Below are positions 1,366 through 21,197 of a stretch of 36,998 nucleotides of DNA, piece by piece. The position numbers were made by a program, and so were the translations under genes. This DNA comes from Candidatus Portnoybacteria bacterium CG_4_9_14_3_um_filter_43_11 (GTDB lineage: Bacteria > Patescibacteriota > Minisyncoccia > Portnoybacterales > UBA2143): positions 1-36,998 of the forward strand of contig PFWG01000009.1 of NCBI GenBank assembly GCA_002791035.1, given 5' to 3'. Below the pieces are notes generated by a model that saw nothing but the letters and a program-made list of their open reading frames with translations, did no database searches and was not told the DNA's origin. How positions within the stretch are numbered: the stretch's first letter is position 1; each line of letters begins with the position of its first letter.

Positions 1366-2645
1366 AATGGCTGGAAAAAATCACTCAGATTTTTAAGATA
1401 AAGGAATTGCGAAAGAAAATCATTTTCGTTCTTTTGATTTTTGTCGTTTTTAGGATTGCCGCCAATATTCCGGTTCCCGGCATTGATACTGAACAGCTGA
1501 AGAGTTTTTTCTCTAACAACCAATTATTCGGACTCTTGAACATCTTTACTGGCGGGGCAATGAGTAATTTGTCAATTATTATGCTTGGACTTGGTCCGTA
1601 TATTACCGCCACCATTATTATGCAGCTTTTAACGATGATTTTTCCGCAGATCGAGGTGCTTTATAAAGAGGAAGGTGAAGCCGGCCGGCAGAAATTCAAC
1701 CAGTATAGCCGGATGCTGACTGTTCCCCTGGCCGCGCTTCAGGCATACGCGATGTTGACGATTTTGGGGCGGCAGGGCATTTTAGGCAGCCTGTCCGTTC
1801 TCCAATGGATAATTTCCATTTCGGTTATTACCGCCGGCGCCTTGTTTTTGATGTGGCTGGGGGAATTGATTTCGGAAAAAGGAGTCGGTAATGGCGTTTC
1901 CCTTTTAATTTTCGCCGGGATTGTTTCCGGAGTTCCCTTGTCAATAAGAGAATTGGCCGTTACCTACGATCCGTCAAAAATTCCGTCTTATTTTGCTTTT
2001 TTCGCTTTGGCTCTGATTATCACCGCCAGCGTCGTCGTTATCACTGAAGGCCGGCGCAATATCCCGGTTTCATACGCCAAGCGCGTCCGGGGTAATAAAG
2101 TTTATGGCGGCGTCTCTACTTATCTGCCTCTGAATGTTAATCCAGCCGGTGTTATTCCGATTATTTTCGCTTTGTCAATTATGCTTTTCCCCGGGATGAT
2201 CGCCAGTTTTTTGGGCACCTCTAATATTCCGGCGATTTCCAATGCCGCCCAGGCGATGGGCCGGCTTTTCCAAAATCAGTGGTTTTACGGCATTTCTTAT
2301 TTCATCCTGGTCGTCCTTTTCACCTATTTCTACACCGCGGTGACTTTTGACCCAAAAAACATCGCTGGGAATCTTCAAAAAATGGGCGGGTTTGTGCCGG
2401 GGATTCGTCCGGGCAAGCCGACCTCCGATTTTCTCTATTTTATCCTCAATCGAGTTCTTCTTTTCGGCGCCATTTTCTTGGGTACGATTGCGGTTTTGCC
2501 CTCCATTATTCAGGGTTTAACCGGCATCGCTACTTTTGAATTTGCTGTCGGCGGCACCGCTCTTTTAATCGTTGTCTCGGTCGCCCTAGAAACGGTCCGT
2601 CAAGTCAGCTCGCAATTGACTATGCGCGATTATGAGGGGTTGTAA
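1362..2645 (+). CDS. secY: Preprotein translocase subunit SecY
   Basis: 427-aa polytopic membrane protein with LFGLLNIFTGGAMSNLSIIMLGLGPYITATIIMQLL and WLGELISEKGVGNGVSLLIFAGI. The ATGA start overlaps the L15 stop. Confidence 0.97.
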   Translation: MKWLEKITQIFKIKELRKKIIFVLLIFVVFRIAANIPVPGIDTEQLKSFFSNNQLFGLLNIFTGGAMSNLSIIMLGLGPYITATIIMQLLTMIFPQIEVLYKEEGEAGRQKFNQYSRMLTVPLAALQAYAMLTILGRQGILGSLSVLQWIISISVITAGALFLMWLGELISEKGVGNGVSLLIFAGIVSGVPLSIRELAVTYDPSKIPSYFAFFALALIITASVVVITEGRRNIPVSYAKRVRGNKVYGGVSTYLPLNVNPAGVIPIIFALSIMLFPGMIASFLGTSNIPAISNAAQAMGRLFQNQWFYGISYFILVVLFTYFYTAVTFDPKNIAGNLQKMGGFVPGIRPGKPTSDFLYFILNRVLLFGAIFLGTIAVLPSIIQGLTGIATFEFAVGGTALLIVVSVALETVRQVSSQLTMRDYEGL

Positions 2646-2650
2646 ATATT

Positions 2651-3322
2651 ATGGCAAAAAACAAACCTAAAATTATTATCCTTCTTGGCCGATCGGGAAG
2701 CGGCAAGGGAACGCAAGCCAAACTCTTAATTGATGACTTTGGTTTTGACTATTTAGGCACCGGCGATCTGCTTAGGGAAAGAGTGAAAGAAAATGATTTT
2801 TCCGGGAAAAAACTTAAACAGGAGATGGATAAAGGCGAAAGGGTTTCAACTTATTATGTTTTTCAGCTTTGGGGCAAGGCCGCCGAAAAGATAAAAGAAA
2901 AACCAAATTTAAAAGGAATTATTATTGACGGCAGCCCCCGTTCTCTTTTGGAAGCGGAGTTAATGGATGGCCTTTTGGATTGGTACGAGTGGGAAAATAT
3001 TAAGGTAATTCTAATTGATATTTCCCCCCAAGAGGCCTTTGACCGACTGACTAAAAGAAGAATGTGTAAAATGTGCGGCCGGCTGATTCCTTGGGTTGGG
3101 ACTTTTAAGGATTTGAAGGTCTGCGACCAATGCGGCGGAGAATTAATAGAGAGAGCCGATGACGCCCCGGCGGCAATTAGAAGAAGAATGGATTATTTTA
3201 AAAAAGACGTTGAGCCGGCGATAGAGTATTACCAGAAGCGGAAAAGATTGATTGAAATAGACGGCGAGCAGTCGATTGAAGACGTCTATCGTAATGTCAA
3301 AAAGGCCGTTTCAAAGGTATAG
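2651..3322 (+). CDS. adk: Adenylate kinase with a zinc-lid
   Basis: P-loop GRSGSGKGTQ, a LID with CKMCGR...CDQCGG, and the canonical position after secY. Confidence 0.93.
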   Translation: MAKNKPKIIILLGRSGSGKGTQAKLLIDDFGFDYLGTGDLLRERVKENDFSGKKLKQEMDKGERVSTYYVFQLWGKAAEKIKEKPNLKGIIIDGSPRSLLEAELMDGLLDWYEWENIKVILIDISPQEAFDRLTKRRMCKMCGRLIPWVGTFKDLKVCDQCGGELIERADDAPAAIRRRMDYFKKDVEPAIEYYQKRKRLIEIDGEQSIEDVYRNVKKAVSKV

Positions 3323-3348
3323 TCAAGATTAAATGAAATAACTTAGAA

Positions 3349-4092
3349 ATGATTCCAATAAGAACGCCGCAAGAAATTGAAATAATGTCTCAAGCGGGCA
3401 AAATCCTGGCGGAAGTGATAAGAGAAATAAAGACGATGATTGCGCCGGGAATTGCCACCAACGAGCTGGATAAGGCCGCCGAAGGTCTTATTTTAAAATC
3501 CGGCGCTCAACCGGCCTTTAAAGGTTACCAGGGATTTCCCAAGACGCTCTGTGTTTCAATCAATGAGCAGATTGTTCACGGCGTCCCCTCTGAAAGAATC
3601 ATCAAAGAGGGCGATGTCGTCGGATTGGATTTGGGCATTGTCTATCGCGGCTACTACGCCGATATGGCGATAACCTTGCCGGTTGGTTCGGTTGAGCCGG
3701 AAACGATGCGCCTGATAAAAGCGACTAAAAAAGCCCTTAAGCGGGCGATTGCCCGGGCCAAACCGGGCAAAACCTTGGGCGATATCTCTCACGCTATTCA
3801 AGGGCATATTGAAGACCAGGGGTTTTCCGTTATCCGCGACTTATGCGGACACGGCATTGGCCGAAAACTTCACGAAGAACCGGAAATTCTTAACTACGGC
3901 CAAAGACACAAAGGACCGGAACTAAAACCAGGAATGATTTTGGCCATAGAACCAATGGCGGCAATAGGAAAACCGGGGATAAAAAAAGGCCCGGACGGCC
4001 ACAGTTATCAAACCATTGACAATAGTATTTCAGCTCATTTTGAGCACACTGTCGCTATTACCGCCCAAGGCCCGCGAGTTCTGACAGAGTAA
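3349..4092 (+). CDS. map: Methionine aminopeptidase type I
   Basis: Contains VHGVPS, GDVVGLDLGIVYRGYYADMA, CGHGIG, LAIEPM and AHFEHTV metal-ligand blocks. It follows adk. Confidence 0.95.
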   Translation: MIPIRTPQEIEIMSQAGKILAEVIREIKTMIAPGIATNELDKAAEGLILKSGAQPAFKGYQGFPKTLCVSINEQIVHGVPSERIIKEGDVVGLDLGIVYRGYYADMAITLPVGSVEPETMRLIKATKKALKRAIARAKPGKTLGDISHAIQGHIEDQGFSVIRDLCGHGIGRKLHEEPEILNYGQRHKGPELKPGMILAIEPMAAIGKPGIKKGPDGHSYQTIDNSISAHFEHTVAITAQGPRVLTE

Positions 4093-4129: not shown

Positions 4130-5884
4130 TTATTTCTTTTTCTCGATTTCGTCTTTTATTTTCCCAACAAATTTATTTACTTTTACTGGGCCTAGATCGC
4201 CCTTTTTTCTATCTCGGACGGCGACTAATTTGGCCTTTTGCTCTTTTTCCCCCACAATCAAAAGATAGGGGATTTTTTGCAGTTCTCCGTGGCGGATTTT
4301 CCGGCCTAAGGTTTCGTCGCTGTCGTTTAATTCCGTCCGGATATTTTCTTCTTTTAAGCGCTTGGCAACTTTCTCGGCGTAAGCGTTAAATTTTTGGCTG
4401 ATGGGAATAATCTGGGCTTGGACCGGGGAGAGCCAGACCGGAAAGGCGCCGGCGTAGTGTTCTATCAGAAAAGCCATCGTTCTTTCCAGACAGCCGATTG
4501 ACGAGCGATGAATAGCCATCGGTCTTTTTTTGTTGCCTTTTTCATCAATATAGGTCAGGTCAAATTTTTCGGGCAAATCAAAATCAATTTGGACGGTAAA
4601 GGCGGTCTCTTCTTTGCCGTTGACATTTCTCAATTGAATGTCCAGTTTGGGTCCGTAAAAAGCCGCTTCTCCTTCCGCCTCCGCATATTTGGTTTTTATC
4701 TTATCTAATATCTTTTTCATTTGCGCCTGGGTTTCTTTCCATTCTTTCGGCTTGTTGACATATTTTTTCTTGTCTTTCGGGTCCCACTTGGAGAATCTAT
4801 ACCAGTAGTCGTCAATGCCAAATGTTTTCATAACATATTCTATTAATTCCAAGACCCCTTTAAATTCTTCTTCAACCTGGTCGGGACGGCAAATAATATG
4901 AGCGTCAGCCAAAGAAAAGGCCATTACTCGAATCAGTCCGGATAGTTCTCCTGATTGTTCTTTGCGGTACTGTTTGGCGATTTCGGCGTATCTCAAAGGC
5001 AGTTCGCGATAACTTCTCGGCCGGGAAGCGTAAATCATAAACTGATGCGGACAGGTCATCGGCCGAAGAACATATTCTTCACCGTCAATATTCATCGGCG
5101 GATACATATTGTCTTGGTAGTGCTGCCAATGGCCGGATTTTTTATATAATTCCACTTTGGCCATATCGGGAGTATAGGTTCGCAGATATCCTCTTTTGGT
5201 TTCTTCGTCTGTGATGAACCTTTCCAGCTCCTGTCTGATAATCGCGCCCTTGGGAGTCAATAGCGGAAGTCCCTTGCCGACCAGGTCGGAAAAAACGAAC
5301 AAGTCCAGTTCTTTGCCCAACTTGCGGTGGTCTCTTTTTTCGGCCTCGGCCTGTTGGTTGAGATAATCTTTTAGTTCTTTTTCGGTGGCAAAAGCGACGC
5401 CGTAGACGCGGGTAAGCATTTTGTTTTTTTCGTTTCCCCGCCAGTAAGCGCCGGCGATTTTAGTCAGCTTAAACGCCTTGGGATTGATTTCTTTAGTTAA
5501 TTTGACATGAGGGCCTTTACATAAATTCTCAAACCAATCGGACCGGTAAAAGCTAACCTTTTTTTCACCGGCCTTTTTTAATTCTCTTATCACCTCGCTT
5601 TTATACGGGTCTTTTTTGTAGAGTTTTAGGGCCTCGCTAAAACTCATATTATGCTGTTCAAATCTAATGTTTTGCTTAATTAATTCCTTAATCCGTTTTT
5701 CCAATTTGGGCAGCAGTTCCGGCGAAATCGGTTCCGGCAGGCCGTAATCCTGATAAAAACCGTTTTCTATGGCTGGTCCGACGCCTAAACCTGCTTCAGG
5801 ATATATTTCCATAATCGCCATGCTCATCAGATGAGACAAAGAATGGCGTATTCTTTCTAATTGCGGTTCTTCTTTTTGAGGCAT
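4130..5884 (-). CDS. thrS: Threonyl-tRNA synthetase lacking the N-terminal TGS domain
   Basis: 584 aa. It begins at the editing-domain HxxxH motif (RHSLSHLM). Class II core blocks are present (FYRSDWFENLCKGPH, RPMTCPHQ, ELPLRYAEIAKQYRKEQSGELSGLIRV) together with a C-terminal anticodon-binding domain. Confidence 0.93.
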   Translation of the reverse strand: MPQKEEPQLERIRHSLSHLMSMAIMEIYPEAGLGVGPAIENGFYQDYGLPEPISPELLPKLEKRIKELIKQNIRFEQHNMSFSEALKLYKKDPYKSEVIRELKKAGEKKVSFYRSDWFENLCKGPHVKLTKEINPKAFKLTKIAGAYWRGNEKNKMLTRVYGVAFATEKELKDYLNQQAEAEKRDHRKLGKELDLFVFSDLVGKGLPLLTPKGAIIRQELERFITDEETKRGYLRTYTPDMAKVELYKKSGHWQHYQDNMYPPMNIDGEEYVLRPMTCPHQFMIYASRPRSYRELPLRYAEIAKQYRKEQSGELSGLIRVMAFSLADAHIICRPDQVEEEFKGVLELIEYVMKTFGIDDYWYRFSKWDPKDKKKYVNKPKEWKETQAQMKKILDKIKTKYAEAEGEAAFYGPKLDIQLRNVNGKEETAFTVQIDFDLPEKFDLTYIDEKGNKKRPMAIHRSSIGCLERTMAFLIEHYAGAFPVWLSPVQAQIIPISQKFNAYAEKVAKRLKEENIRTELNDSDETLGRKIRHGELQKIPYLLIVGEKEQKAKLVAVRDRKKGDLGPVKVNKFVGKIKDEIEKKK

Positions 5885-5905
5885 AGTTTTTTATTAATCT
5901 GTAAA

Positions 5906-6373
5906 TTAGATACGATTACGGGCGAATCGTGCACCAACCACTTTCATTAGGAGCGTTTCCAGGACAGTTCGTTCCTTGACCGCTCGGCTCCATATTGAAT
6001 TGAAGAATAAAAGTTGAGCCACATCGGAGGTATATTTATAGACCAAATTTGGCGTTCCTGAATCCTGAAGCGGGTCCAGTGGCGTTTTTGAGAGATAATC
6101 TGGTTCTAAACCGGAAATAAAATCTGGACCGACAAGAGGAAGATGGCTATAATCACTGTCGCCGCCATCATTATTATCAATGGGATAGCTTTGATAGCCG
6201 TCATTATACAGATTCAAGGCAGTCATAATCTGGAGTATATCGCTCATTCTTCTCTTGTTTCTGGCGTCCCTTTTGACCTTAGTTAAGCTGGCTAAGGACA
6301 AGGAGGCCAGAATTCCAATAATAGCGACGACAACCAACAATTCAATTAAGGTAAACCCTCTTTTCTTGTTCAT
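5906..6373 (-). CDS. Type IV pilin / pseudopilin-like protein (prepilin N-terminal methylation motif)
   Basis: The N-terminus MNKKRGFTLIELLVVVAIIGILASL is a class III signal peptide with G|FTLIE. The C-terminal part is divergent. Confidence 0.8.
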   Translation of the reverse strand: MNKKRGFTLIELLVVVAIIGILASLSLASLTKVKRDARNKRRMSDILQIMTALNLYNDGYQSYPIDNNDGGDSDYSHLPLVGPDFISGLEPDYLSKTPLDPLQDSGTPNLVYKYTSDVAQLLFFNSIWSRAVKERTVLETLLMKVVGARFARNRI

Positions 6374-6381
6374 TCCTTGTT

Positions 6382-9300
6382 CTACTCTAATACCTTAACA
6401 CTCTCGCACAGGATTTTCAAGTTTTCGTCGCGATCGCTCAGCCGCCCGCTGACTAAAACGATTTTGTCTTCTTGCCAGGCCGGCGCGGTCTGCTCTAAGA
6501 CCTTCGGGAAAACAATGGTTTCAAACCGGCCGGTCAGGTCCTCAATTTCAACAAAAAGCATCGGCTGGCCGTTGCGGGTGTTGATTTTTTTTATTCGGTT
6601 GATTATCCCGCCGATTTTTATCCGACGGCCGGACTGATTTCTTGAAATCTGTCGGTAGGAAGTAGTCAGTTTTTCCAGTTTTTTGCGGTATCTCTCCAGC
6701 GGATGCTCGGAGATATAAAGGCCAAGGAGTTCTTTTTCCCAAGCCAGCATTTCATTTTTATTGGCTGGCGCGACTGACGGAAGCGCAAAAGACGGAATGG
6801 CAACATTGGTTTCGGCGCCGAATAAACTGACTTGGCCGCTTTGCCTGGCGCGTTGGGTTTCTCTGGCCAAAGAGAGCATTTGTTCCATGCCGGCCAAGAG
6901 TTGATTTCTTTCTCCAAAGCCGTCCAAAGCGCCGCATTTGACTAAACTTTCCAGCGATTTTTTATTGAGGTCTTTTGACTCTACCCGTTCAATAAAATCA
7001 GCGATTGACTGGTATGGTCCATTGGTCTTTCTTTCGTTGACGATGGCAGAAACGATGTTATGGCCGACATTTTTAACGGCATTAAGGCCGAAACGAATAG
7101 TCATATTGCCGGCTTTGGTAAAGTCGCAGTCGCTTTCGTTGGCGCTGGGGGGCAGGACTTTTATTCCCATTTGTTTGCACTCATCTACCAAAAAGGCGAT
7201 TCGCTCAATGTCGTTTTGCTCGGAAGTCATCAGCGCCGCCATAAACTCGGTTGGAAAATGAGATTTGAGATATGCGGTCTGATAGCCAATAAGGGCGTAG
7301 CAGACAGAATGGGCTTTATTGAATCCATACTGGGCAAATGGTTCAATTGTTTGCCAGATTTTGACGGCGGTTTTTTTCTCCAGCCCATTGGTGACCATGC
7401 CTTCAATCATTTTGTCCTTTTGCTCATCAAGCAGTTTTTTGATTTTCTTGCCGACAGCTTTTCTTAAAACATCGGCTTCGGGCAGGGAAAAACCGGCCAG
7501 GTCTCGGGCAATGCGCATCAATTGTTCTTGATAAACCATTACTCCGTAAGTGTTTTCAAGAATTGGCTTCAGTTTTGGATGGAGATACTCAATTTCTCTC
7601 AGTCCGTGCTTTCGGGCGATAAATTCCGGGATAAATTCTATTGGGCCCGGCCGATACAAGGCGACGAGAGCGACAATATCTTCAAATTTCGTCGGCTTTA
7701 ATTGTTTAAGGCATCTTTTCATACCTCCGCTGTTATGCACAACAAAACCATTGGCAACGAAGTTATTCCCCGGCGCTTTCATGACAATATCATAAGTTGT
7801 TTCTTTTTTGCCCGGTTTGATTTCTTTGACTTCAAGAAATTTAAAGCTTCTTTTAGTAGGAATGATAGGACATTCCCACTTAACTAGGTTTTTGTATTTG
7901 ATGGATAATTCCGCGAATTTTGTGGCGCTAATTAAAACGAAATTATATTGAGGGTATTGTTTTTGGAATAATTCCATCTTTTTTTGGTCCAACTCATGAA
8001 GCCATCCCTTAATTTCGTAGAAAGTGTTGGTATTCTTGACATAAAAGTCCGGAGTATAGTGAAGAGTTTCGCCACCGCTATTTTTTAATTCGAATGTTTT
8101 TGATTCGTATTCATATTCAACTTTATAGAGATTTAAAATTCTGGCAAAATCGGCTTCCCAATTAGAACGGACATAATGACCTAAATCTTTCCGGTACCCC
8201 CCTTTTCTATGCGGGGACTTTCTGCCAAACATTGGATTATTTTCTCCTCTAAATCTTTCGGATAATTTCTTTTTTATTTCCTTTGACTTCTTTATTCCGT
8301 AGAAGTCATCAAATGTTCTTCCTAATAAGGCCTTAGAAATTTTCTGACCGGTGTGTTGTAAAATTAAACTGGTTTCTTTTGTGAGTCCTTGATTCCATGG
8401 AGTTCCTCCTTTTTCATAAAATATCTTTCTGGCCCTAGAAATTTTTTCTCTTGATTTTGGTTTACTTGGATTTCTATAAAAAGTGGCGGAGCATTTGTAA
8501 CAGAAATTACTTTTTCCTTCTTTTTGTCCGCTTATTTGTTTCCTGCAACTTTGGCAAGTGTTATAAACTAAGTGTTTTGCTTTTGATTTTATTAAAATTT
8601 TTTCACCCTCTTTGATATCTTTTAATTGTTTCCATCCATTTTCGGTGAGAAAATAATGATCCGGCGTTGCTTTGATGTACCAATTATTTTCTGCTACTAA
8701 AATGAGGGTTTCTTTCTTGCCGGCGCAGCAAACATCAATAATTTGATTTTTGTGTATCGCGCCTTCGTCTAAGTAAACTGATTCCAATGCCTTTTTGTCT
8801 TTTCGCTTATATAACCCTTTAATCGTAGTGTTAGAAACTATAGTGTCTCCAGATAGACATTCCAATTGAAACACGCCGACGCTATTAGATTGCTGGAGCA
8901 GATGAAAAGTTTTCTTGTCATTAAGGGGGATGTTGTTGATTTCAGCTTCCTGGCCGGACAGTTCCCTAATTTGATTAAGGGTGTTTTGGATAACAGTCAA
9001 GGTTTTTAGGCCTAAAAAATCCATTTTTAGCAGGCCGAGGTCCTCAATGGCGTGCATTTCATATTGAGTGACAACGCTTTCATTATCCTGAGTCGGGTGC
9101 TGGCAGGGGACGGACTTGTCTAGTGGTTCTTTAGTGATGACGACGCCGGCGGCATGAGTAGAAGCGTGGCGGGCGACCCCTTCCAGCTTTTTAGCCATAT
9201 CAATCAGTCGCTTGGTGTTTTCATCCGATTCATAGGCATTATGGAGTTCCTGTGAATCGTTGACAGCGTTTTCCAAAGTAGAACCGAAAGGAATCATTTT

Positions 9301-9738
9301 TGCTACTTGGTCGCAAAAAGCATAGGAATATTCCATTGCCCGACCGACATCGCGGACCGCGGCTCTAGCGGCCATTGTCCCAAAAGTGATAATTTGAGCA
9401 ACATGGTCATGGCCGTATTTTTGCCGGACATAATCAATAACTTCGTCGCGCCGGTCATCGGCAAAATCCAGGTCAATATCCGGCGGAGAGATTCGTGTGC
9501 TTTCAATCTTTTTACGAGGGTTGAATTTGCCTTGAGGCAGTTGAGATGTTATTCCGAGGGCAAACGCGACAAAGCTGTTAATATCGTTTTTATCTCCCTG
9601 TTTTTTCTGTAGATAAAGATTGTGGAAATCATCAATTAACCCGAATTTTTCTATTTGCTCCAATTCAAAACCTAATCTCTTTTGGTCAAGATCTGTTCTT
9701 TGCCGACAAACTTCTTTTAATTCTTCAAATTTTCCCAT
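6382..9738 (-). CDS. dnaE: DNA polymerase III alpha subunit, C-terminal fragment (palm/thumb/fingers/OB), containing an intein
   Basis: Canonical DnaE resumes at NPRKKIESTRISPPDIDLDFADDRRDEVIDYV. Further blocks are HASTHAAGVVI, LLKMDFLGLKTL, VGVFQLE[intein]SGGM, ALYRPGP, YGVMVYQEQ, FNKAHSVCYA and a C-terminal OB region. Confidence 0.9.
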   Translation of the reverse strand: MGKFEELKEVCRQRTDLDQKRLGFELEQIEKFGLIDDFHNLYLQKKQGDKNDINSFVAFALGITSQLPQGKFNPRKKIESTRISPPDIDLDFADDRRDEVIDYVRQKYGHDHVAQIITFGTMAARAAVRDVGRAMEYSYAFCDQVAKMIPFGSTLENAVNDSQELHNAYESDENTKRLIDMAKKLEGVARHASTHAAGVVITKEPLDKSVPCQHPTQDNESVVTQYEMHAIEDLGLLKMDFLGLKTLTVIQNTLNQIRELSGQEAEINNIPLNDKKTFHLLQQSNSVGVFQLECLSGDTIVSNTTIKGLYKRKDKKALESVYLDEGAIHKNQIIDVCCAGKKETLILVAENNWYIKATPDHYFLTENGWKQLKDIKEGEKILIKSKAKHLVYNTCQSCRKQISGQKEGKSNFCYKCSATFYRNPSKPKSREKISRARKIFYEKGGTPWNQGLTKETSLILQHTGQKISKALLGRTFDDFYGIKKSKEIKKKLSERFRGENNPMFGRKSPHRKGGYRKDLGHYVRSNWEADFARILNLYKVEYEYESKTFELKNSGGETLHYTPDFYVKNTNTFYEIKGWLHELDQKKMELFQKQYPQYNFVLISATKFAELSIKYKNLVKWECPIIPTKRSFKFLEVKEIKPGKKETTYDIVMKAPGNNFVANGFVVHNSGGMKRCLKQLKPTKFEDIVALVALYRPGPIEFIPEFIARKHGLREIEYLHPKLKPILENTYGVMVYQEQLMRIARDLAGFSLPEADVLRKAVGKKIKKLLDEQKDKMIEGMVTNGLEKKTAVKIWQTIEPFAQYGFNKAHSVCYALIGYQTAYLKSHFPTEFMAALMTSEQNDIERIAFLVDECKQMGIKVLPPSANESDCDFTKAGNMTIRFGLNAVKNVGHNIVSAIVNERKTNGPYQSIADFIERVESKDLNKKSLESLVKCGALDGFGERNQLLAGMEQMLSLARETQRARQSGQVSLFGAETNVAIPSFALPSVAPANKNEMLAWEKELLGLYISEHPLERYRKKLEKLTTSYRQISRNQSGRRIKIGGIINRIKKINTRNGQPMLFVEIEDLTGRFETIVFPKVLEQTAPAWQEDKIVLVSGRLSDRDENLKILCESVKVLE
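7732..8859 (-). mobile_element. Intein (376 aa) inserted in the DnaE GVFQLE|SGGM motif
   Basis: Block A is CLSGDTIV, with Cys1 at codon 8857-8859. Block B is TPDH. Blocks F/G are TYDIVMKAPGNNFVANGFVVHN followed by +1 Ser, with Asn at codon 7732-7734. Removing it restores the conserved FQLESGGM. The segment is visibly more AT-rich than flanking dnaE. Confidence 0.85.
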
Positions 9739-10696
9739 GATAGAAATTCTTTACGAAGATATATTTACGTTTGAGAAAATAATTTGAGTTACGATAAAGA
9801 TAATCGACGAATTTTTTGACATCTTCCTTGCGAAAAAGGCGCAGTTGATAACTTCCTTTGCCGCCGCCCCTGTCGTCAAATCTTATTTTATGAAAAGTTA
9901 TCTTTAACTGTTTTTCTAACATACTCTTGATTTCTTTGGAAAATTGATAAGAAGCAGAGGACAAAGCGGAACAAAGATAGATATATCTGTTACTTTCCCG
10001 TTTATCTAAATAGAAGCTTCCGTCGCCGTCGTACATTCCTCGCAAAAAGTGTCTTATTAATTTTTCCGGAATTAAGGGAATGGATAATTCTTTCCAGCTT
10101 TTTCTCGGCATTACGCCCAAATTAATTAATGAATTACGCAAATTTTGGTTACTGATTATTAAACAAAAATAATTTTTGTATTGATGGATGGGGCTAGTCG
10201 TCTCTAACAGTTTTCTACAGGTTTCAATCATATCTCTGTCATTTGAGGAGATATTAATGTGATTGCTTTTACTGGAAACACTGCCGTCGGAAAAAATTAT
10301 TCCTAAAAGGTAGGCCTTGCCTTCAGAATCAATTTTATCAAAAAATTTTTCATTAACTTTGTAGGCCCTACTTTTTATATTACATTGATTGCTGCAAAAA
10401 ATTTGATGAGGATTTCTAGATCTATATCCGAATACAGATTTACAGGTCGGACAAATTTTATCGTCGCGATTATATTTACGACGCGCCTTTGATGAGCATT
10501 TTTCGCCGCAATATTTTCGATTGCGAGTTTCTCTTTTATTTACAAACTCTTCGTTGCATTGAAGGCAAATTTTTTGGTAGGCCGCATTTTTTCGGAAACT
10601 ATTATAACAAGCAAGGGAACAAAAGCGGGCGGCAGATTCTCGATAATTGTGTATATAAAACTCTTTTGAGCAGGACTGGCAGATTTTTTTAATCAT
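9725..10696 (-). CDS. Free-standing double-motif LAGLIDADG homing endonuclease with three N-terminal CxxC...FCxxxC zinc modules
   Basis: LAGLIDADG motifs are [13 protein letters not shown] and [14 protein letters not shown]. The N-terminus has three CxxC-x15/16-CxxxC repeats. The ATG at 10696 overlaps the stop of the upstream dnaE fragment. The stop lies 14 nt inside the downstream dnaE fragment. The frame differs from both dnaE fragments. Confidence 0.85.
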
Positions 10697-11909
10697 GAAT
10701 TCCAAAATCCTCTTTATTCAAAAAGTATGTTTCTTTAACACTCAAGAATCTTTCAAAGAGCAAATCATATTTTAGCGGGTCAATGTCGGTAATGTTCAAA
10801 AGATGGGAAACAATGGAGCCGGCGGCGCTTCCTCGGCCCGGGCCGCAGACAATGCCGTTGGACTTGGCCCAGTTGATGAAATCGGCGACGATAAGAAAAT
10901 ACGAGGCGAAACCGGTTTTGGCAATAACTTTCAATTCGTAGTCCAGTCGTTCCAGAACTTTTTCTATCGGGCTGTCAAATTGGCGCTTCTTCAGCCCCTC
11001 CAGGCAAAGTTTTTTGATGTAGTCGTCGGGTGCTTCGCCGGTTGGAACCTCAAACGAAGGTAGCTGGATTTTGCCCAGTTCAAACTCAAAATTGCACGCT
11101 TGAACGATTTTTTGAGTGTTGGCTATCGCTTCGGGGATATGCTTGAAATCCTGAATCATTCTTTCCGTCGACCGAAGGGAAAAATCGTCGTCTTTCATCG
11201 TCAGCCGCCGCTGATCGTCCACTTTTTTGTCGGTCTGAATACTCATCAAGACATCTTGAGCTTCGGCGTCTTCGGGTCTGATGTAGTGAACGTCGTTGGT
11301 GGCGACCAAGGGGATGCCGCATTTTCTTGCCAGTTCAATCATGGCTTTATTGACCGGTTCCTGGCTGGACAGGCCGGGGTGGTGTTGGATTTCAAGGTAA
11401 AAATTTTCCGGACCGAAGATTTTTTGGTATTCCCGGGCGGCTTCCTCCGCTTCCTTTATTTTGCCGGCGGCAATTTTTTTAGGAACTTCGCCGGAAAGGC
11501 AAGCAGTCAGGGCGATCAGACCCTGGCTATGTTTTTTTAGGAGTTCTTTGTCTATGCGCGGCTTGTAATAAAAGCCGTCCAAATACGCCTTGGTGGTCAA
11601 TTTGACCAAATTGCGGTAACCAGTGTCGTTTTTGACTAAAAGAACAAGATGATTGAGTTTGTTGTCAATTCCCGGTTGGCGGTCAGCCATAGTTCGGGGA
11701 GCGAGATACATTTCGCTGCCGATAATGGGACGGATACCTCTTTTTTTGGCCTTCTGATAAAACTCGACTACGCCATACATAGAGCCATGGTCGGTTAAGG
11801 CGATGGAAGACATCTTCAACTCCTGGCACATATCCAAAATCTGGTCTATTTTAGCCAACCCGTCTAACAGAGAGTAATGAGAGTGAACATGTAAATGAGT
11901 GAATTTCAT
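10689..11909 (-). CDS. dnaE: DNA polymerase III alpha subunit, N-terminal fragment (PHP domain to ...FERFL)
   Basis: Contains the PHP motif [15 protein letters not shown], then [38 protein letters not shown] and [34 protein letters not shown]. This is followed by 17 non-DnaE residues and a stop. Confidence 0.9.
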
Positions 11910-17380: not shown

Positions 17381-17602
17381 CCGTCTTTGCTGTTAATTGG
17401 TTAATTTTATCTTGGCCGGTAAAAGAACTCTGCTGTGGCAGTGGCGGTTCTTCGCTTTGAAAGAAATAGTTTTGCGAACTGGCAGTCATTTTTTAAATCC
17501 GTTTAACTCCATTGTAATTCTTTGGTGTGTCTTGTCAACTCTGTTGGGGGTAGAATCTCTTTTAGAGATTCTACGGAGTTGAAATTGGGGATTGGTCTTC
17601 CA

Positions 17603-18526
17603 CTAGGATTTTGCCAAGTCAGAAAATAAGGTTTTAAGCCCGGCGGTATTTAACCAATAATTCTTTGGATTTTTCTTTAAGTATTTTTTGATTTCTTTTC
17701 TTTGTGTTTTTAGTTTATCGCCAGCCCTGCTGTTGGATATGAGTATATTTGAATAACTGCCGTCTAAAAAAGAGATGTAGGAAATATTTGGAGTTTTTTC
17801 CTTGAGATTTAATATTTCAATTAGTTCTGAAATCTGCTTATCTTGTCCGCCGCCGGAGGTGTTAAGATGTTTTGCTTCTATTAAAAATATCTTATTTTTA
17901 TACCTAATAATCAGGTCTAATTTTTTACCTTGCTTTTTGGCTTTAAGTTTAACTTTTAAATTTTCTTTGACTTTTTTAACGCTGAAAACCTTGGAAAATT
18001 GAGCAACGCATTTGTTTGATTTATTAAATTCTTCCCAAGTTTTAACTTCTTTAAAACCCAATTTCTTTAATATCAAGGTTAGTTTTAATTCGCCGCATTT
18101 TCCTTTCTTGCGAGAGGAATTAGAATCTATTATTGCCTGAATCCATTCTTCGGGGACGAGGTCTCTTAACAATCTTTTAGAAAAGTATCTCCGGGTAATT
18201 TTCTTTATTAAGTCCAAATCTTTTCTGACCGCGCCCAAGGTATTATCGCAGGCGTTAACGAAACAGATAAATTCGGAGCAGTTGGAAAATTCCGATAATG
18301 ATTTTTGCAATTCTTCAAAATACTTGTTGATTATTTTTGGATTTTCTTTTTTCTTTTGAAGAGTTTTAATGGTAGTTAAAATTTCCTTGATCTCTTTTGT
18401 ATTTTTGACATATTTTTTCAGATTAGGATTTTTATTGTCAAAAATATAAAAATTATCCAAAGAAGTTTCTGGATTTTCCTGCGATACTTTAAAGTAATGT
18501 TGATTGTTTTGAATGTTTTTGCTCAT
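17603..18526 (-). CDS. Putative type II restriction endonuclease (PD-(D/E)XK-like)
   Basis: It overlaps and follows the methyltransferase gene. The candidate catalytic pattern is GEL...KKLDLIIRYKNKIFLIEAKH (D...ExK). The gene is very AT-rich and lysine-rich. Confidence 0.55.
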   Translation of the reverse strand: MSKNIQNNQHYFKVSQENPETSLDNFYIFDNKNPNLKKYVKNTKEIKEILTTIKTLQKKKENPKIINKYFEELQKSLSEFSNCSEFICFVNACDNTLGAVRKDLDLIKKITRRYFSKRLLRDLVPEEWIQAIIDSNSSRKKGKCGELKLTLILKKLGFKEVKTWEEFNKSNKCVAQFSKVFSVKKVKENLKVKLKAKKQGKKLDLIIRYKNKIFLIEAKHLNTSGGGQDKQISELIEILNLKEKTPNISYISFLDGSYSNILISNSRAGDKLKTQRKEIKKYLKKNPKNYWLNTAGLKTLFSDLAKS

Positions 18527-19628
18527 AGAGATAATTCAAAAATTTATAGGTAAAATCAAACGAAATTCTTTTGCGGCCGTTATCGCGGAAATTAGTGAGA
18601 AAAAATGAAAAATATTTTTTTCTGTTTTGGTTTAACTTCTGGTTGAATTCCTGTATTAGTTTTTCCTGCTCTTCCACGGGAATTCCCTGGCCGAAAATTA
18701 TATGGGCCATATTTCGAGAAGTATTTTTACCAACAAGCCCTAAAATATTATATCTTCTTATATCTTCAAGTTGTATCTTTTTTCCGTTCTTGCTGTCAAT
18801 GGCTCTTAAGAGCAAGATATTTCTTTCTAAAATATTTCTAACATTTCCATGGATATTATAATTTCTTATTTCCTTTATATTTTGAAACGCCATTTTAGCT
18901 CCATAACTTCCAGATTTCAGAAAATCTTCAGTCAGGCGGAAAATTTCTAAATAATTTTTAGCGCTTTTTATCTGATTAATAAAATTGCCGCCTAACTGCC
19001 AGCCGAATTTTCTTTCTATAGCAAAATTGATTTTTTCTTTTTCTGGGAATATGGCAGCTGATATTTTGTTTTTACCATCAAATCCTTTTTTCTTCTTGTA
19101 ATAAAAAGAAATTACATTATAGGTCGTATCTTTAAAAACTTGTTGGGAAAAAACATTTAACTTAATAATCTTAAACTTTTCAAAAAATAGGTTCCTGATT
19201 TTTTTTGAATTTTCGGCGCAAAGAAAATTTAGAGGAACAATTAAAATTCCTTCTTCGGAATCAAGAATTGAATAGATAGAAACTTGATATAGGTCTTCGA
19301 AAAAGGAGTGTGTGCCGGAAAAGAAATTATCTTTTGTTTTTCCATCGGCTTTATTCTTATGCAGATATGGCGGATTGGTTAAAACAAATTTATATTTCTT
19401 CGGAGAATTGATAGAGTCGTTGTAAAAAACCTTTTTGTTGTCGGTATATTTTTTATCACAGTCAAAGCCGGTGATTTTTTTACATTTATTTTTGCTAGCC
19501 CAACTAAACAAATCCTGATTTCCGGCGAATGGATCAGTAATTTCTTTATTCTTTACGAATGATTCTAGCCCTTGGAGAATATAGTCGGAATTTGTAGTAA
19601 AGAATTGTCCGAGTTGGGCTTTGGTCAT
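18489..19628 (-). CDS. N6-adenine DNA methyltransferase (gamma-type motif order)
   Basis: The motif order is LGQFFTT (motif X-like), then DPFAGNQDL (motif I), then LTNPPY (motif IV). Confidence 0.85.
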   Translation of the reverse strand: MTKAQLGQFFTTNSDYILQGLESFVKNKEITDPFAGNQDLFSWASKNKCKKITGFDCDKKYTDNKKVFYNDSINSPKKYKFVLTNPPYLHKNKADGKTKDNFFSGTHSFFEDLYQVSIYSILDSEEGILIVPLNFLCAENSKKIRNLFFEKFKIIKLNVFSQQVFKDTTYNVISFYYKKKKGFDGKNKISAAIFPEKEKINFAIERKFGWQLGGNFINQIKSAKNYLEIFRLTEDFLKSGSYGAKMAFQNIKEIRNYNIHGNVRNILERNILLLRAIDSKNGKKIQLEDIRRYNILGLVGKNTSRNMAHIIFGQGIPVEEQEKLIQEFNQKLNQNRKKYFSFFLTNFRDNGRKRISFDFTYKFLNYLYEQKHSKQSTLL

Positions 19629-19634
19629 ATCTTT

Positions 19635-19640
19635 ATTATA
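19635..19640 (-). promoter_or_regulatory. Candidate -10 box (TATAAT) 6 nt upstream of the methyltransferase ATG
   Basis: The minus strand reads ctagTATAATaaagatATGacc, with no room for an SD sequence. Confidence 0.4.
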
Positions 19641-19664
19641 CTAGAAAATAGAAATTTTGATAAG

Positions 19665-19692
19665 AAAAAACCGATGCATTAGATCGGTTTTT
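19665..19692. terminator. Bidirectional intrinsic terminator-like hairpin
   Basis: AAAAAA-CCGAT-gcattag-ATCGG-TTTTT lies between the 19715-20251 ORF and the R-M operon. Confidence 0.6.
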
Positions 19693-19714
19693 CTACTTTT
19701 GTTTTAATGGGATG

Positions 19715-20251
19715 TCAATGTTTGTGATTTGCTATAACTTTTCTGAAATCTTTTTTTAATTGTTTTTTTATATTTGGTAATTTGTTTTCGATTTCTTGAA
19801 ATGCTTTATTCCATTGTTGAAAGGAAGTATCTTGGTCTTTTATTGATTGCGACATAATTGATGCTTCTAGATTGCTTAAAATTTGAAGCGAACTATCAAT
19901 AAAAGAATGAATCATTAAAACTGAACTTTTGTCTAGAATTATTTCTTTCTCCCAAAAATAATCTTGTAGACCGAAAAATTTTGTTTTTATCAAGGGGAAT
20001 TCATTTATTTTTTCAGATAAAGATCCCTGATTGGTCTTTGCGCCAATTGTTCTGCTATATTTTTTAAAATCTTTCTCAAGAGCAACGATCTTGCTGTATA
20101 TTTCTTCCAAATAAACAAGTTTTCTATCAAAGATTTTTTCAAATGTATATCTTCTTTGAGAAAAGTAGTATGTCAGAACTGCGGTTAAGAGAATACCAAG
20201 TAATGAGATAACGCTTTGTATAAAACTTGGACCAGATAAGAAATCTTTCAT
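19715..20251 (-). CDS. Hypothetical membrane-anchored coiled-coil protein
   Basis: One N-terminal TM segment (VISLLGILLTAVLTYYF) and a helical remainder. The gene is AT-rich. I recognise no family. Confidence 0.5.
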   Translation of the reverse strand: MKDFLSGPSFIQSVISLLGILLTAVLTYYFSQRRYTFEKIFDRKLVYLEEIYSKIVALEKDFKKYSRTIGAKTNQGSLSEKINEFPLIKTKFFGLQDYFWEKEIILDKSSVLMIHSFIDSSLQILSNLEASIMSQSIKDQDTSFQQWNKAFQEIENKLPNIKKQLKKDFRKVIANHKH

Positions 20252-20300
20252 AGATTGTGTCGTAGAACAAATAACAATACTTTATCTAAATGTGGATATT

Positions 20301-20376
20301 TGGCGGGGACGATGGGAATCGAACCCACGATCTCCTGCGTGACAGGCAGGCGCTTTAACCGCTAAGCTACGCCCCC
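20301..20376 (-). tRNA. tRNA-Asp (GUC), CCA encoded
   Basis: The reverse complement folds as GGGGGCG-UA-GCUU..AAGC-G-CCUGC-CUGUCAC-GCAGG-AGAUC-GUGGG-UUCGAUU-CCCAU-CGUCCCC-G-CCA. The anticodon is GUC. Confidence 0.9.
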
Positions 20377-20380
20377 AAAG

Positions 20381-20454
20381 TAGCGGCGACAGGATTCGAA
20401 CCTGTGACATCGGGCTTATGAGTCCCGCGCTCTAACCAACTGAGCTACGCCGCC
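20381..20454 (-). tRNA. tRNA with CAU anticodon (elongator Met or Ile2), no encoded CCA
   Basis: The reverse complement folds as GGCGGCG-UA-GCUC..GAGC-G-CGGGA-CUCAUAA-GCCCG-AUGUC-ACAGG-UUCGAAU-CCUGU-CGCCGCU-A. It has a G1-U72 wobble and an A31/G39 mismatch. Confidence 0.8.
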
Positions 20455-20455
20455 A

Positions 20456-21145
20456 TCATTTTATTTTTAAATTAGATATTCCTTCAATCCAGCCGTCTAT
20501 TTTTCTTCTTAGTCGAGTTCCTTTCCGGACTTTTATTCTTAGGGTTCCAAAATGTTCGTTATAGTTTTCGTAAATTTTTTTTGTTTCTGTCTTTTTTAAA
20601 CTTGGTTTATTGAACTGCGATAGGGGAATCTCCGTAAGATCGGACCAATATTTTTCTACTTCCTTTACTCTTTTTTTATGAATCTTGTTAATTCCCACTC
20701 TAAGAGAAAACCTATCGATGCTTATTTTGCAACAATTTTTGAACCATTCGAGCATAAAAAGAATCATTTTCGGATCTGAATTAGTAAATCCAACGTCATA
20801 ATTAGACGGAGCAGTATATCCTTCACTCCAATACATTGCTATTCCAGCAACAAGTAAATCTCTTTTATTAAGTTTATCGATTTCTTTAATGCCCTCTTTT
20901 CTTAATAACTCTACTTCCGTTTGTCTTTTTTGTCTTATTTTTTCTACCGCCCTTAATCTTCCTTCGTAACTTCCGGATATTTGTTTTTCCACTAATCGTT
21001 TAATCTGAGTATGCGAAAGTGGTATATCTCTACACCATACGCTAACAGTGCCCTTAGAGATATTTATCTTTTGAGCAATTTCATTGATACTCAATCCTCT
21101 TTTGCGTAACTTTTGCGCTTTAGTCTGTTCCTCTATCTTCGCCAT
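20456..21145 (-). CDS. HTH domain protein with a LAGLIDADG-like C-terminal domain (putative free-standing homing endonuclease or maturase-like)
   Basis: The N-terminal HTH is RGLSINEIAQKINISKGTVSVW. LLVAGIAMYWSEGY resembles a single LAGLIDADG motif. The gene is AT-rich and sandwiched between tRNA genes. Confidence 0.5.
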   Translation of the reverse strand: MAKIEEQTKAQKLRKRGLSINEIAQKINISKGTVSVWCRDIPLSHTQIKRLVEKQISGSYEGRLRAVEKIRQKRQTEVELLRKEGIKEIDKLNKRDLLVAGIAMYWSEGYTAPSNYDVGFTNSDPKMILFMLEWFKNCCKISIDRFSLRVGINKIHKKRVKEVEKYWSDLTEIPLSQFNKPSLKKTETKKIYENYNEHFGTLRIKVRKGTRLRRKIDGWIEGISNLKIK

Positions 21146-21197
21146 TTTAGAACCTTATATTATTAGGCACATTAACATTATATATGAGGTTCTAAAA
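21145..21197. promoter_or_regulatory. 16-bp inverted repeat overlapping the start of the HTH-LAGLIDADG-like ORF (candidate operator or tRNA terminator)
   Basis: TTTTAGAACCTTATAT (21145-21160) pairs with ATATATGAGGTTCTAAAA, specifically 21182-21197, with one G-T pair and a 21-nt loop. The loop contains TATATAAT on the minus strand. Confidence 0.45.

Follow-up and report, generated by a model that had tools for sequence, protein, structure and literature searches.

A dnaE intein of a candidate-phyla-radiation bacterium with a T7-endonuclease-I-type nuclease domain: a probable two-part homing endonuclease

Contig PFWG01000009.1 of Candidatus Portnoybacteria bacterium CG_4_9_14_3_um_filter_43_11, an uncultured bacterium of the candidate phyla radiation (CPR), was analysed over its positions 1 to 36,998, and this whole stretch is called the window here. 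Its dnaE gene lies on the minus strand and is interrupted at 7732-8859 by an intein. The element is best explained, and quite probably, as a mobile, full-length class-1 dnaE intein with a two-part homing endonuclease, in which a DNA-binding arm made of a zinc ribbon and NUMOD3 repeats would serve a nuclease domain of the T7 endonuclease I type. We regard it as an intein of standard build whose endonuclease represents a new lineage, one that is abundant in public data but apparently unrecognised. The intein, its parts and the flanking exteins within the open reading frame (ORF) 6382..9738 are as follows.

7732..8859, minus strand: complete class-1 intein of 376 amino acids (translation; Pfam Intein_splicing, 2.6e-17; AlphaFold2; Foldseek; guanine-plus-cytosine (GC) content)
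8860..9738, minus strand: N-extein part in this ORF, the DnaE palm/NTPase domain after a 72-amino-acid leader (Pfam DNA_pol3_alpha, 3.4e-62; alignment to the intact 1439-amino-acid DnaE of the orthologue L001)
8575..8859, minus strand: Hint N-terminal splicing lobe, residues 1-95, with block A (C1 LSGDTIV) and block B (KATPDHYF); beta-rich segment with a predicted local distance difference test (pLDDT) score of 75-93
8491..8556, minus strand: CxxC-x14-CxxC zinc ribbon (C102, C105, C120, C123), read directly from the sequence; the four Cys are invariant in 8 orthologues
8215..8472, minus strand: three NUMOD3-like helical DNA-binding repeats, residues 130-215, ending GENNPMFGRK (Pfam NUMOD3; AlphaFold2 helices)
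7870..8214, minus strand: T7-endonuclease-I-type PD-(D/E)XK nuclease domain, residues 216-330 (Pfam, PHROGs, phmmer against PDB, AlphaFold2/Foldseek, family profile)
7732..7869, minus strand: Hint C-terminal splicing lobe, residues 331-376, with blocks F and G (TYDIVMKAPGNNFVANGFVVHN)
7729..7731, minus strand: codon (AGC) of the +1 Ser, first C-extein residue and splice-junction nucleophile (Ser at +1 in 8/8 orthologues)
6382..7728, minus strand: C-extein, the rest of DnaE with finger, HhH and OB domains (Pfam DNA_pol3_finger, HHH_6, tRNA_anti-codon)

A first-pass annotation of the window had placed a DnaE intein at these coordinates on the strength of CLSGDTIV, TPDH and a following Ser, all of which are present in the translation. 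The intein corresponds to residues 294-669 of the 1118-amino-acid ORF; it begins with CLSGDTIV, has the TPDH of block B at intein residues 65-68 and ends with NNFVANGFVVHN (GFVVHN), next to which SGGM is read. The insertion site is FQLE|SGGM in the finger domain of DnaE. In Pfam searches of the ORF, Intein_splicing was found between DNA_pol3_alpha and DNA_pol3_finger, and the match of the latter picks up at profile position 48, directly past the insertion. The class-1 signature is made up of C1, T65-P-D-H68, H375-N376 and S+1, and these residues are invariant in 8 orthologous inteins (seven complete and a partial eighth, L008; 63-68% identical to the intein of the window), which come from patescibacterial genomes assembled from metagenomes and bearing the labels Parcubacteria, Paceibacterota, Saccharibacteria or Patescibacteria group. 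The AlphaFold2 model of the whole intein has the Hint fold, with a pLDDT of 80.8, and Foldseek matched it to the Ssp DnaB and Mtu RecA mini-inteins with a probability of 1.0. Intein-less DnaE fragments from the databases, 63-68% identical, run uninterrupted as GVFQLESGGMKR (VFQLE|SGGMKR), and the nucleotides of the spliced dnaE junction would be GGCGTGTTTCAATTGGAA|AGCGGAGGTATGAAAAGA. Since intein-less DnaE reads unbroken across the junction, the predicted product of splicing is a normal DnaE. Hence, it was confirmed at the level of sequence that 7732-8859 encodes a canonical class-1 intein in DnaE, and splicing is predicted.

The splicing blocks are separated by about 235 residues (96-330), which hold the zinc ribbon, the three NUMOD3-like helices and the nuclease domain. 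It is supported by profile similarity and by structural models that the last of these belongs to the T7 endonuclease I family of the PD-(D/E)XK restriction fold. The stretch SNWEADFARIL...YTPDFYV...FYEIKGW spans intein residues 232-286. When all PDB sequences were searched with phmmer, T7 endonuclease I was the sole match besides one noise match (E=1.2), and the alignment pairs RSNWE, YTPDF and YEIKG of the intein with RSGLE, YTPDF and VETKG of the phage enzyme. A family profile made from 26 relatives and searched against PDB gave T7 endonuclease I (1M0D) at E=9.8e-13, the next match being the Bax1 nuclease at 5e-4. The PHROGs matches were Holliday junction resolvase/endonuclease families, the best at 3e-15, and the Pfam family Phage_endo_I (PF05367; cut-off 29.1 bits) was matched above its cut-off, at 31-34 bits, by the orthologues P0036, P0072, P0076 and P0160.

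The first-pass annotation had described the nuclease as PD-(D/E)XK-like and had proposed structure prediction as a check, and AlphaFold2 with Foldseek gave the restriction fold and no other. For the nuclease region, AlphaFold2 was given an alignment of database proteins; the core was modelled with pLDDT >90 and has the order helix-strand-strand-strand-helix-strand of the restriction-fold core. Foldseek placed T7 endonuclease I at the top (probability 0.98-0.99), followed by TnsA, RecE, Bax1 and AbaSI, all of them restriction-fold enzymes. The global root-mean-square deviation of the T7 endonuclease I match is high, presumably because the model is compact and the crystal monomer set against it is domain-swapped.

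Other nuclease types were searched for as well. LAGLIDADG and HNH modules, which had been said to be missing, are indeed represented by no Pfam family in the 1118-amino-acid ORF; the LAGLIDADG match in the window belongs to a separate ORF, 9725..10705. No match to Vsr or I-Bth0305I (3R3P) was found at E<=10 by phmmer or profile, neither is in the Foldseek top 50, and no Pfam match to DUF559/Vsr was found in the ORF 6382..9738. I-Ssp6803I (PF11645, 2OST) was not matched in Pfam or in PDB sequence and profile searches, and an NCBIfam scan of the endonuclease region returned no family. The likeness to TnsA of Tn7 that had been read from the sequence holds in structure, where TnsA is a restriction-fold neighbour (Foldseek rank 5, probability 0.95), but T7 endonuclease I is the closest relative, TnsA (PF08722) gave no Pfam, PDB sequence or profile match, and the nuclease of the window has no transposon context. 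Some phage relatives are annotated 'TnsA endonuclease N-terminal domain'. Vsr/EDxHD, I-Ssp6803I and TnsA were therefore rejected as the family of the nuclease, having no sequence or profile match, and are regarded as analogues only.

The alignment to T7 endonuclease I and the alignments of orthologues and family members point to the following residues.

8155-8157, minus strand: E235, candidate catalytic residue (alignment to T7 endonuclease I)
8047-8049, minus strand: D271, candidate catalytic residue (same alignment)
8014-8016, minus strand: E282, candidate catalytic residue (same alignment)
8008-8010, minus strand: K284, candidate catalytic residue (same alignment)
8104-8106, minus strand: E252, further invariant residue (orthologue and family alignments)

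In the phmmer alignment, E235, D271, E282 and K284 are paired with E20, D55, E65 and K67, the catalytic residues of T7 endonuclease I. The phage enzyme (gp3; PF05367; PDB 1M0D, 2PFJ) is a free, domain-swapped dimer of 149 amino acids that resolves four-way junctions without sequence specificity. It shares with the domain of the window a homologous nuclease core, the catalytic residues and the YTPDF motif; unlike it, the domain of the window lies within an intein, where a zinc ribbon and NUMOD3 repeats precede it, and its genetic behaviour is that of a mobile element. Substitution of the proposed catalytic residues in close homologues had been named beforehand as one of the findings that would speak against the PD-(D/E)XK reading. 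None was seen in the 8 orthologues, where E235, E252, D271, E282 and K284 are all invariant; among 92 family representatives clustered at 50% identity, the four acidic residues are invariant and K284 is kept in at least 90%. The ratio of nonsynonymous to synonymous substitution rates (dN/dS) of the nuclease is 0.055 and 0.068 in the two unsaturated pairs, and that of the splicing lobes is equally low. The nuclease is under purifying selection.

The DNA-binding arm had also been described in the first-pass annotation. The zinc ribbon has exactly 14 residues between its two cysteine pairs. The basic repeats reminiscent of NUMOD3 were borne out by a Pfam NUMOD3 match of 27.8 bits (cut-off 20.4) on residues 190-214, that is, on the third helix and GENNPMFGRK, and the AlphaFold2 helices 134-149, 165-178 and 189-204 match the three basic repeats. 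NPMFG is, like the cysteines of the ribbon, invariant in the 8 orthologous inteins. With such conservation at 63-68% identity, the motifs of arm and nuclease are no product of chance.

Several observations point to mobility. The GC content of the intein is 34.5%, uniform over its four parts, and lies 12 points below that of the exteins (46.5-47.3%). Intein-minus alleles are present among the closest DnaE sequences of the databases. In L003 and L004, two patescibacterial genomes (bins) from different studies, 1,180 nucleotides (L003:5503-6682) are free of any nucleotide difference and comprise the intein with 45 nucleotides upstream and 10 downstream; the flanking dnaE sequences differ by about 9% upstream and about 7% downstream, dnaE being otherwise 88-94% identical. 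From the sequences, this looks like recent homing or gene conversion with short co-conversion tracts. Related Hint domains, in the inteins of NrdJ (L009) and SufB (L013), hold LAGLIDADG modules, so the endonuclease was swapped at the usual insertion point. The distribution of the intein is sporadic, and intein-less alleles, the GC offset, the identical tract and the clean indels of the free-standing gene (see below) are signs of horizontal spread.

A mechanism modelled on I-TevI, I-HmuI and especially I-Bth0305I (PMC3239194) is proposed for the two-part homing endonuclease. The endonuclease is inserted at the standard position between Hint blocks B and F, and its zinc ribbon and three NUMOD3-type helices would bind about 20-30 bp of an intein-less dnaE allele, the predicted target lying around GTnTTYCARYTRGAR|AGCGRnGGnATG. 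The arm would tether the C-terminal T7-endonuclease-I-type domain and place the cut near the insertion site, where the E235/D271/E282/K284 centre would perform metal-dependent cleavage. The domain may cut as a dimer, giving a double-strand break (cf. T7 endonuclease I, I-Bth0305I), or as a monomeric nickase (cf. I-HmuI). Repair of the break off the intein-bearing allele would then copy the intein in, and protein splicing would restore DnaE. DNA cleavage, target site, oligomeric state and type of cut are inferred.

A number of points weigh against a mobile intein with a homing endonuclease. The sequence of the window itself scores 25.7 bits against Phage_endo_I and is slightly under the Pfam cut-off. 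As T7 endonuclease I is a structure-selective, domain-swapped dimeric resolvase, sequence-specific cutting of duplex DNA is an extrapolation, and cleavage by members of the family is a prediction. In L003, the region 1501-2000 (rpmF/RNase HII) is also near-identical to L004 and the region 2000-3750 is unalignable; the two genomes are thus mosaics, and general recombination or mosaic genome bins could explain part of the identical tract. Across the 8 genomes the identities of intein and extein mostly track each other, and because they run parallel inheritance may be mostly vertical.

The last point also bears on the possibility that the nuclease is a decaying relic, its PD-(D/E)XK module inactive and the intein persisting through splicing alone. 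Dead endonucleases are frequent in inteins, intein and extein divergence is broadly parallel, and two database fragments are substituted at candidate catalytic residues (P0003 has G for E282, P0002 has Y for D271). Decay is nevertheless disfavoured by the conservation of the catalytic residues in the orthologues and the 92 representatives and by a dN/dS as low as that of the splicing lobes, and the difference-free tract of L003 and L004 coincides with the intein inside a diverged dnaE. A relic was hence judged unlikely.

The wider family was explored in an exhaustive profile search, which matched 23,334 cluster representatives at E<=1e-3, with 732 left at the stricter limit of E<=1e-30; the weaker matches probably include plain resolvases. 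All 17 long DnaE proteins that were scanned from the top 150 have an intein at the same position of the finger domain, and 12 of these 17 intein-bearing proteins have a Phage_endo_I or NUMOD3 match at E<=0.001. The same zinc-ribbon/NUMOD3/EndoI module was found inside inteins of a host other than DnaE in P0129 and P0160, with the extein context YAPFIEYG|C or YVEYG|C and HN|TS; from its sequence, this host looks like a phage head-tail structural protein of the HK97-gp10 type. The DnaE fragment P0005 has an intein of the window type and the start of a second one after ADYGFNR|CLTGDAEV. Two long proteins, P0087 (1186 amino acids) and P0115 (1079 amino acids, ending C-terminally in an HTH_17 domain), have four to six separate family-profile matches but neither intein nor DnaE domains; the nuclease module may be arrayed in tandem or fused in them.

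Free-standing relatives, 220-420 amino acids long, combine the nuclease with NUMOD-like repeats and with either one zinc ribbon or two. They stand directly upstream of a phage-type dnaE in four independent metagenome contexts, and such an upstream gene is present in 4/41 viral contigs with related dnaE. Clean presence or absence of a 1.1-kb segment with this gene was seen on comparing phages about 77% identical in nucleotides, namely L073 (1865-3006) with L048 (2948-3060) and L046 (1914-3005) with L048. L046 has a further 1.3-kb insertion within dnaE (5349-6668). In seven contigs (L050-L056), a 311-amino-acid family member forms a separate ORF inside a phage dnaE (L050:2935-7905), where it sits between the halves of a split intein (N-terminal FERFLNPHR|CLNPET, C-terminal LLTHN|SGAPDIDSD). 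This layout is the 'fractured gene' arrangement of Dassa et al., known for GIY-YIG and Vsr-like endonucleases (PMC2677866). Among predicted viral structures, many similar two-module proteins were found, and Bacillus phage G has two copies. Their annotations range over endonuclease I, TnsA-like, NUMOD3 and, in one case, putative homing endonuclease.

Family members were thus found in inteins, in a split-intein gap and upstream of dnaE, together with NUMOD3 repeats and zinc ribbons. Every one of the three classical homing niches is occupied, and of the comparative evidence this speaks most strongly for a family of homing endonucleases. It is somewhat favoured over the contrary that the zinc-ribbon/NUMOD3/T7-endonuclease-I-type proteins form a seventh homing-endonuclease family, in which a Holliday-junction-resolvase fold was turned into a sequence-directed duplex cutter that occupies all the classical niches and is largely specialised for dnaE, with the intein of the window as an in-frame, intact and selected representative.

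The same relatives could be read to mean that the domain keeps the job of T7 endonuclease I as a structure-selective resolvase or branch nuclease, released by splicing or acting in repair, in so far as the closest characterised relatives are all junction resolvases and the free-standing ones adjoin dnaE in phage replication modules. However, resolvases of the family have about 150 amino acids and no DNA-binding arms, whereas here the zinc ribbon and NUMOD3, which are hallmarks of phage homing endonucleases, are conserved with the nuclease. The free-standing genes, moreover, are sporadic clean indels and not core genes, and they also fill the split-intein gap. A conserved phage resolvase gene beside dnaE was rejected as their description, given 4/41 loci and the clean 1.1-kb indels, and a retained resolvase function of the intein domain was considered improbable. 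That the element is no true intein, being an inserted domain or a bacterial intein-like element retained in the mature polymerase, was set aside as very improbable: block F has NNF in place of the HNF of many inteins, but no orthologue departs from C1, TxxH, the terminal HN or the +1 Ser, the model is a Hint fold, and the insertion splits the universally conserved FQLES, which is contiguous in intein-less homologues.

Homing endonucleases have been grouped into six structural families, with I-Ssp6803I representing PD-(D/E)XK and I-Bth0305I the Vsr-like EDxHD (PMC3384342). I-Ssp6803I (PF11645; PDB 2OST), a homing endonuclease, has the restriction fold and a classical D...ExK centre (PMC3384342) and in these resembles the nuclease of the window, but its gene lies in a group I intron of a tRNA and the enzyme is a small tetramer with no NUMOD or zinc modules. 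I-Bth0305I has N-terminal NUMODs and a C-terminal restriction-fold domain, is a dimer and has a footprint of about 60 bp (PMC3239194). The EDxHD (Vsr-like) enzymes, among them Hef (PMC3239194) and the ORFs of fractured genes, share with the window family the N-terminal NUMOD region and the C-terminal restriction-fold domain (PMC2677866, PMC3239194), as well as two niches, the gap of a split intein in phage dnaE and the free-standing state in phage genomes. Their active site is E-D-x-H-D with a His general base, their lineage is separate from that of the nuclease of the window, and they have been described as free-standing or intron-borne forms (PMC2677866, PMC3239194). I-TevI (GIY-YIG) and I-HmuI (HNH) likewise tether extended binding by zinc finger and NUMOD3 to a small catalytic cartridge (PMC3239194); they differ in catalytic fold, have the nuclease N-terminal, in reversed order, and are intron-encoded.

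LAGLIDADG is the commonest type of intein endonuclease (2020 review, PMC7765530). Inteins of this type (PI-SceI, PI-PfuI and those of NrdJ, L009, and SufB, L013) share with the intein of the window a class-1 Hint domain and an endonuclease between blocks B and F, and blocks B, F and G of the window are recognisably similar to those of L009 and L013; the endonuclease fold, however, is unrelated. A survey of the PD-(D/E)XK superfamily in 2012 listed Phage_endo_I as a junction resolvase only and did not mention inteins (PMC3424549). The full-text literature that was searched, with much subscription literature outside its scope, gave no description of a T7-endonuclease-I-type nuclease, either inside inteins or in the role of a homing enzyme. 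The first-pass annotation had called such a nuclease unusual for an intein; this holds for the searchable literature but not for the databases, where the same intein was found in at least 8 patescibacterial species genomes and in at least 17 DnaE clusters at 50% identity.

If cleavage is confirmed, the family would represent a new catalytic lineage among mobile inteins, and it would show by what route a resolvase that selects structures comes to be aimed at one particular duplex sequence, namely by the addition of NUMOD3 and zinc modules. The free-standing, split-intein-gap and in-frame forms would then make up a natural series for the joining of endonuclease and intein. The clusters at E<=1e-30, at least 732, are a large untapped pool of modular long-site nucleases. 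Intein scanners that seek LAGLIDADG or HNH alone would label such inteins 'mini-inteins with unknown insert'.

In the window, dnaE as a whole is split into three ORFs.

10689..11909, minus strand: DnaE 1-391 with a 17-amino-acid tail, ending FERFL before the tail (ORF list, Pfam)
9725..10705, minus strand: free-standing zinc-finger and LAGLIDADG_3 ORF, 34% GC (Pfam)
6382..9738, minus strand: 72-amino-acid leader and the remaining DnaE with the intein (Pfam)

The endonuclease starts at an ATG that overlaps the stop codon of the first ORF (cATGATTAA, with AAGAGG upstream), its own stop overlaps the ATG of the third ORF, and from this sequence arrangement the three are apparently translationally coupled. 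The orthologue L001 has an undivided dnaE ORF of 1439 amino acids. The break after FERFL is at the same position of DnaE as the split intein of L050-L056. A group I or II intron was rejected as the cause of the break, as Rfam gave no match at 9.5-10.7 kb at gathering thresholds, at E<=1 or, in a 361-nucleotide sub-window, at E<=10 (noise only). Layouts similar to these three ORFs are the fractured SbcD gene of Dassa et al., which has no intein, and the nrdA gene of phage Aeh1, which is split by mobE (PMC3045599).

The 72-amino-acid leader (9523-9738, minus strand; LYLQKKQGDKNDINSFVAFALGITSQLP) resembles the N-terminus of P0079 (QEKKQRGDRNSCQSVLAYYMGITSLAP; L024:1223-1500), a phage-like DnaE piece with no PHP domain. 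The leader also has the appearance of a degraded copy of GRGSAAGS...LGITDIDP, a segment present in the upstream ORF; BLASTP (E=14) gave no support for such a duplication, the sole support being that both ORFs match profile positions 69-97 of Pfam DNA_pol3_alpha. Elsewhere in the window, a low-GC stretch (29-36% GC) at 17600-21150 adjoins two tandem tRNA genes (20304-20454) and is probably an integrated island; its genes encode a DpnII/Tsp45I-like restriction endonuclease, two ORFs with no Pfam match and a helix-turn-helix protein. The GC content is low again at 23-24 kb, where a radical-SAM/SPASM gene is located.

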